From Escherichia coli (GTDB lineage: Bacteria; Pseudomonadota; Gammaproteobacteria; Enterobacterales; Enterobacteriaceae), in the NCBI RefSeq assembly GCF_003334765.1, contig NZ_QOWT01000025.1: a DNA stretch of 58,632 bases; one strand, written 5' to 3'. Under the pieces are notes generated by a model. The model saw nothing but the letters and a program-made list of their open reading frames with translations. It had not been told where the DNA came from and ran no database searches. The position numbers were made by a program, and so were the translations under genes. Positions 43,723 to 43,784 of this stretch are shown here, one piece after another (position 1 is the stretch's first letter; every line of letters starts with the position of its first letter).

Positions 43723-43747
43723 CCCACTTTGCCCCACAATTTCCCAC
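43723..43747 (-). promoter_or_regulatory. Three direct GTGGG repeats at 10-bp periodicity (MraZ operator)
   Basis: Minus strand reads GTGGGAaattGTGGGGcaaaGTGGGA, 20-45 nt upstream of the mraZ start; matches the described MraZ binding repeats (TGGGN with about 5-nt spacers). Confidence 0.7.
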
Positions 43748-43755
43748 TGAAAGGA

Positions 43756-43784
43756 GTTTACGGAGCGGAGGAAAAGCTTGTCAA
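43756..43784 (-). promoter_or_regulatory. Candidate Pmra promoter (-35 TTGACA, 17-nt spacer, -10 GTAAAC)
   Basis: Minus strand: TTGACA (43779-43784) - 17 nt - GTAAAC (43756-43761), immediately upstream of the MraZ repeats; transcription start not verified. Confidence 0.55.

Follow-up and report, generated by a model that had tools for sequence, protein, structure and literature searches.

Promoter and repeat architecture upstream of mraZ

What do three short G-rich repeats do between a promoter-like sequence and the start codon of mraZ, the gene that heads the dcw cluster, and is that promoter the one from which transcription starts? We analyzed this locus in a 58.6-kb stretch of DNA (hereafter the window), which, judged from its letters, is Escherichia coli chromosome in reverse orientation. 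All promoter and operator features read out on the minus strand of the window, and K-12 positions were obtained as 133337 minus the window coordinate. The gene upstream of mraZ is cra. The mraZ coding sequence (43245..43703, minus strand; start codon ATG at 43703..43701) specifies 152 amino acids and is followed by 15 ORFs, whose lengths agree with those of rsmH to lpxC of K-12. The 751-nt cra–mraZ segment was matched in all but two of 5426 complete E. coli genomes; the 87-nt promoter/operator segment was likewise present in 5424/5426, and 3513 of those genomes were 100% identical to the window over these 87 nt. From the −35 hexamer to the mraZ ATG, K-12 and the window show a single difference, located in the promoter spacer at 43767, where the window has C and K-12 has A. 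The C form is commoner than the K-12 A form among complete E. coli genomes, and the exchange implies no functional difference.

Read from 43784 downward on the minus strand, the region has the layout TTGACA-AGCTTTTCCTCCGCTCCG-TAAACT-CCTTTCA-GTGGGA-AATT-GTGGGG-CAAA-GTGGGA-ATAAGGGGTGAGGCTGGC-ATG. A promoter scan returned the −35 hexamer TTGACA (43779..43784, minus strand), an 18-nt spacer (43761..43778) that lies inside the 16–18 nt range of sigma-70 promoters, and the −10 hexamer TAAACT (43755..43760). An earlier sequence-only reading of this DNA had drawn attention to the perfect TTGACA element, which is indeed present at 43784..43779 and invariant in Enterobacteriaceae, and had taken GTAAAC (43761..43756, minus strand) as the −10 element. 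The latter assignment was one base out of register: GTAAAC overlaps TAAACT by all but one base, yet it agrees with TATAAT at 2/6 positions and TAAACT at 4/6, and the two key bases, A at position 2 and T at position 6, are missing from the former and present in the latter. Taken together, TTGACA-18-TAAACT matches the consensus at 10/12 positions and is the sole site of at least 10/12 on both strands of the whole window. Since a shuffled sequence of window size yields about 6.7 sites at 10/12, the hexamer match by itself is not statistically rare; the promoter, Pmra, is persuasive through its position, its conservation and its mapped start site rather than through the hexamers alone.

Downstream of TTGACA and upstream of the mraZ ATG, three GTGGG pentamers follow one another at exactly 10-bp spacing from 43747 to 43723. 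The sequence-only reading had placed these repeats and the upstream edge of the element (43784) to the base, leaving the minus strand unstated. Sequence, pattern search and conservation all define three boxes on the minus strand: box 1, GTGGGA (43742..43747); box 2, GTGGGG (43732..43737), with the conserved context TTTGTGGG; and box 3, GTGGGA (43722..43727), with the conserved context AAAGTGG. A generic repeat finder missed the three boxes, which are too short and too degenerate for it; pattern searches with the GTGGG and GTGG forms located them. GTGGG-N5-GTGGG-N5-GTGGG had one match in the 58.6-kb window even when one mismatch was allowed (0.02 expected), and the looser GTGG-N6-GTGG-N6-GTGG likewise had one (0.04 expected). 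Closer to the gene, a likely Shine-Dalgarno sequence, GAGG (43709..43712, minus strand), stands 5 nt before the ATG, and GGTGAGGCTGGC is well conserved.

Transcription starts at the first box

Public start-site data place the transcription start at 43747..43748 on the minus strand, corresponding to the G of K-12 89590 by Cappable-seq and the A of K-12 89589 by TSS-seq. In the Cappable-seq table (PMC4782308, supplementary file 1), the + strand start at K-12 89590 has a score of 27.2 and is the strongest + strand start among those listed for the cra–mraZ intergenic region. The start at K-12 89589 was reported by Kim 2012 (PMC3415461, supplementary file 2) with 29 reads and a 45-nt leader, and the same study shows that Klebsiella pneumoniae uses the equivalent start position (70 reads, 45-nt leader). 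In window coordinates, K-12 89590 is 43747, the first G of box 1, and K-12 89589 is 43748, the preceding A; these fall 8 and 7 nt past the last T of TAAACT, respectively, inside the 5–9 nt expectation. The mapped starts thus confirm the promoter and fix its −10 hexamer as TAAACT. A start mapped elsewhere had been named as grounds for giving up the sequence-only reading, and both maps leave it standing.

Because transcription starts at the first base of box 1, the three boxes run from about +1 to +26, so that operator and start site overlap. The repeats had been described as lying between the promoter and the mraZ start codon; they do lie downstream of the −10 hexamer and upstream of the ATG, but box 1 begins at the start site itself.

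These maps differ from a value that is often quoted. Passages of PMC7761207 and PMC5089854 that cite Hara 1997 and Vicente 1998 put the start 38 bp upstream of mraZ. A 38-nt leader would mean a start at window 43741, 14 nt from the −10 hexamer, and the Cappable-seq table (PMC4782308) lists no start at the corresponding K-12 position, 89596. The disagreement with the genome-wide maps (44–45 nt) amounts to 6–7 nt, with the older start further downstream. Only the genome-wide starts fit the distance from the conserved −10 hexamer; the 38-nt value does not. Setting the modern start-site maps against the often-quoted leader is, like bringing the −10 hexamer into register, a minor addition of the present analysis.

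As a separate observation, one of the 5424 E. coli genomes, that of strain WS3294A (NZ_CP035819.1; our locus L082, 301-382), carries a 5-nt deletion, CAGTG, by which the mapped start site is lost along with the GTG of box 1. The deletion may reflect natural variation in the operator or a fault in the assembly.

The boxes are conserved and anchored to the promoter

We fetched 80 species-level Enterobacteriaceae loci, in which MraZ is 88–96% identical, and added K-12 and the window to give 82 sequences. The −35 to −10 spacing was 18 nt in 82/82 sequences, and the box spacing was 10 bp in every one of the 82. Both TTGACA and TAAACT were invariant among the 66 unique promoter sequences, and the GTGG of all three boxes was invariant among the 75 unique sequences of the box region, in which the flanks were 30–70% conserved. 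The invariant columns comprised CTTGACAAG, TTTTCC, GCTCCGTAAACTC, the GTGG of box 1, TTGTGG at box 2 and AAAGTGG at box 3. Variable columns lay upstream of the −35 hexamer, in the stretch from the discriminator to box 1, and between the boxes. Within the Pmra spacer (43761-43778, minus strand), 14/18 positions showed no variation across Enterobacteriaceae, an unusual degree of conservation for a spacer.

The repeat unit GTGGG(A/G), as the sequence-only reading gave it, is correct for E. coli, but it is wider than what is conserved. In the sampled sequences, E. coli alone has G as the fifth base of box 3; E. albertii and every other genus have GTGGT, GTGGC or GTGGA at this box, and the conserved core is therefore GTGG. 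The same variation bears on a second reading of the G-rich leader, namely that it is mainly a G-quadruplex, formed either by the non-template DNA or by RNA of the 5′ UTR, that controls mraZ transcription or translation. Together with AAGGGG, the boxes do spell out GGG-N7-GGGG-N6-GGG-N5-GGGG (43745..43714, minus strand), which fits the rule of four G3+ tracts separated by loops of 1–7 nt, as do just two other motifs in the window. Moreover, a G-quadruplex in the mraZ promoter of S. aureus has been characterized biophysically, and similar motifs have been reported for Gram-negative mraZ promoters (PMC11796246). However, the varying fifth base of box 3 means that the third G3 tract is not conserved, unlike GTGG and its 10-bp phasing, and orthologues do not retain the four tracts with their short loops. 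At distant loci, A/T-rich spacers separate the GTGG boxes and G3 runs are missing, and an RNA fold with quadruplexes allowed picked none here. We therefore judge a quadruplex to be secondary and very unlikely to be the main function of the leader.

Placement of the boxes was fixed at one end only. Box 1 began 7 nt after the −10 hexamer in 75/82 sequences, 6 or 8 nt after it in six and 4 nt after it in one, whereas the distance from box 3 to the ATG was either 23–25 or 32–34 nt, with 10-nt insertions in several genera. The boxes are thus anchored to the promoter and not to the start codon, which is a further minor addition of this analysis. This anchoring argues against the idea that the repeats form an RNA-level element of the 5′ UTR, bound by a protein or small RNA and acting on mraZ translation or stability, instead of a DNA operator; such an element has in its favor that all three boxes are transcribed, given the mapped start, and that structure prediction leaves the first 30 nt of the leader unfolded and hence accessible. 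Nevertheless, the distance that varies is precisely that to the ribosome binding site and ATG, phasing by one helical turn is a property of DNA, and MraZ binding to DNA has been published. Neither a match to an Rfam family nor a predicted structure was found. At a permissive threshold, Rfam gave one sub-threshold match inside mraZ (osmY RNA, at 19.9 bits where the gathering score is 46.9), which we took as chance. An RNA-level role in place of the operator is less probable still than a quadruplex.

GTGG boxes recur at distant mraZ loci

A word-indexed homologue search gave only proteins at least 85% identical, and distant loci were taken from a representative-library search instead. Eight such loci, with MraZ 36–63% identical, were examined, and 8/8 have GTGG boxes upstream of mraZ with a phasing of about 10 or 20 bp. 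A strict triple with 5–7-nt gaps was present in 3/8 of them, where it arises in at most 10/20000 shuffles; across the distant upstream regions its frequency was 0–13/20000 shuffles, except at L091 (78/20000), a locus in which the strict triple is absent. Two loci, L086 and L093, have kept TTGAC(A/G)-N18-TAAACT-N7/8-GTGG, and in both the Pmra spacer sequence is not conserved despite the same hexamers. L088 shows two boxes, after which the contig ends. L087, with MraZ 54% identical, has five phased GTGG boxes (345-410) about 200–255 nt upstream of the ATG, implying a long leader; further upstream, its first stretch (1-180) resembles, and may be, the 3′ part of RNase P RNA.

That the triple repeat and the promoter-like hexamers are functionless chance matches, as the frequency of 10/12 matches in shuffled sequence might allow for the hexamers, has a negligible probability and is already refuted by the conservation and start-site data, because a triple expected 0.02–0.04 times per window is invariant in 82 Enterobacteriaceae sequences whose neighboring bases are saturated with change, recurs at distant loci and coincides with the mapped transcription starts.

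We conclude, with a probability of about 0.95, that the element is Pmra (mraZ1p), the sigma-70 promoter heading the E. coli dcw cluster, together with an MraZ operator. The sequence features looked for in such an operator are found here: three direct repeats with a GTG(G/T) core; boxes about one helical turn (exactly 10 bp) apart; a position just after the −10 hexamer, at the start site and directly upstream of the mraZ gene that heads the dcw cluster; boxes conserved across orthologous loci with diverged flanks; and a cognate MraZ with two DXXXR DNA-binding motifs.

MraZ as the reported repressor of its own promoter

In the 2014 work of Eraso, purified MraZ is said to have bound a DNA region with three direct repeats between Pmra and mraZ, and that region is the feature which the sequence-only reading described. 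The ORF beginning at 43703 is MraZ, scoring 225 bits against the NCBIfam equivalog TIGR00242 (cut-off 98). Its two DXXXR motifs are DSKGR at residues 11–15 (D11, K13, R15) and DGAGR at residues 87–91 (D87, R91); the residue roles for these DNA-binding motifs are taken from PMC12957436. According to passages of PMC7761207 and PMC8475190 that cite Eraso 2014, E. coli MraZ binds the upstream repeats past the −10 element and represses Pmra. Together with the identity of MraZ and the match to the K-12 sequence, these statements support the autorepression of the dcw cluster that had been proposed from the letters.

The reach of the promoter is shorter than had been supposed. The 15 genes that it was said to feed do follow mraZ as ORFs, but PMC7761207 states, in a passage citing Hara 1997, that Pmra mainly drives the first 9 dcw genes in E. 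coli and, in one citing Eraso 2014, that MraZ represses the first 11. Pmra is thus credited with mainly the first 9–11 genes and not all 16, and ftsQAZ is served by internal promoters. In published reports, deletion of mraZ in E. coli had no obvious phenotype, so the repression may carry little physiological weight.

The element is therefore not new: descriptions of it exist for E. coli, the protein that binds it is known, and a homologue has supplied the structure of the binding mode. Binding and repression are taken from this literature, whereas the anatomy, the uniqueness in the window, the conservation, the placement of the start site from public data and the MraZ motifs come from the present analysis.

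These elements suggest the following sequence of events. RNA polymerase uses TTGACA-18 nt-TAAACT and starts at the A or G at 43748/43747, and the three GTGG boxes, which come once per helical turn over about +1 to +26, all face the same side of the DNA. MraZ, the first product of the transcript, is an oligomeric protein of the SpoVT/AbrB type, each subunit of which would present Lys13, Arg15 and the arginine of the second DXXXR motif to the major groove at a GTG(G/T) box, and neighboring subunits would occupy successive boxes cooperatively. Once bound, MraZ would cover the start site and the initially transcribed region and would presumably compete with RNA polymerase or, alternatively, stop open-complex formation or promoter escape. 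The outcome is negative autoregulation, which affects mraZ itself and the dcw genes nearest the promoter. The element matters biologically because the cell-wall and cell-division genes close to the promoter are expressed at levels set by Pmra and MraZ.

Other elements between cra and mraZ

The intergenic region holds a second conserved block, CCTAAAATGCCGCTCGCGTCGCAAACTGACACTTTATATT (43951-43990, minus strand), which is common to 93–96% of 79 Enterobacteriaceae sequences, with flanks at about 50–58%. Lying about 230 bp upstream at 43990..43951, this block is as conserved as the operator. It contains a Cappable-seq start (K-12 89360, window 43977) 6 nt after TAAAAT, as well as an inverted repeat, GCAAA-N13-TTTGC. 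The block may serve as an upstream promoter, as a leader or as a site for a regulator. A reading that we consider rather unlikely takes this block, together with the largely invariant Pmra spacer, as a sign that more than the sigma-70 hexamers and the MraZ boxes regulates the region, through an unrecognized regulator or an upstream promoter whose transcripts must read through MraZ-occupied boxes. If such read-through were true, MraZ would be a roadblock in addition to a repressor of initiation.

Two more conserved patches lie in the 600-bp cra–mraZ intergenic region, both on the minus strand: TTTTCTTACAGCTATTCATAACGTTAATTTGC (43868-43897) and GCATTATTTTGTTACA (44102-44117), the latter just upstream of a weak Cappable-seq start (K-12 89237, window 44100). 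Just past the cra stop codon, there is a perfect 10-bp hairpin (44259-44290; about −19 to −20 kcal/mol, z about −3.1), whose U-run falls on the + strand, the one antisense to cra and mraZ, whereas the cra strand has an A-run. With its U-run on the + strand, the hairpin looks like an intrinsic terminator for transcription in the opposite direction. A 26-codon ORF (44238-44318, + strand) overlaps it. A scan of 43200-44400 for intrinsic terminators returned none.

With regard to other regulators, weak binding of PdhR at mraZ has been reported (PMC3265435). A search for PdhR boxes near mraZ gave a sole match, which has three mismatches, lies inside the coding region and is of chance frequency. Elsewhere in the window, a perfect PdhR box, ATTGGTCTTACCAAT (11278-11292, + strand), is presumably the operator of the pdhR-aceEF-lpd promoter, as judged by K-12 coordinate mapping. 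Simple LexA, CRP and Cra patterns were absent from the cra–mraZ intergenic region.

Comparison with known MraZ operators

The closest counterpart is the Pmra/MraZ operator of E. coli K-12 itself (Hara 1997; Eraso 2014), which occupies the same locus, has the same three direct repeats and stands in the same gene order, cra-mraZ-rsmH-ftsL-ftsI and onward; it differs by the A in the promoter spacer where the window has C at 43767. In Burkholderia cenocepacia, PmraBc (PMC7761207) likewise has repeats with a 10-bp period past the −10 element and over a mapped start, and MraZ shifts the fragment. PmraBc differs in having four 7-nt repeats with 3-nt gaps and a 100-nt leader.

Bacillus subtilis has three GTGG[A/T]G repeats with 4-nt gaps (bioRxiv 10.1101/2022.02.09.479790), alike in the 10-bp period and the GTGG core. 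According to the same study, the repeats in the mra promoter are needed for repression by MraZ, and MraZ needs the arginines of both DXXXR motifs. The B. subtilis system differs in the bases flanking the core. Its triple repeat reportedly occurs nowhere else in the genome, and repression acts via ftsL levels.

Finally, the cryo-EM structure from Mycoplasma genitalium (PMC12957436) shows GTG(G/T) boxes with 6-nt spacers. That operator has four boxes against three here, and its MraZ forms an octamer, compared with the dodecamer suggested for the E. coli protein. Its transcription start lies inside box 1, as it does in the window, and each box is read by Lys13, Arg15 and Arg86 of MraZ, for which the E. 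coli protein has the equivalents K13, R15 and R91.
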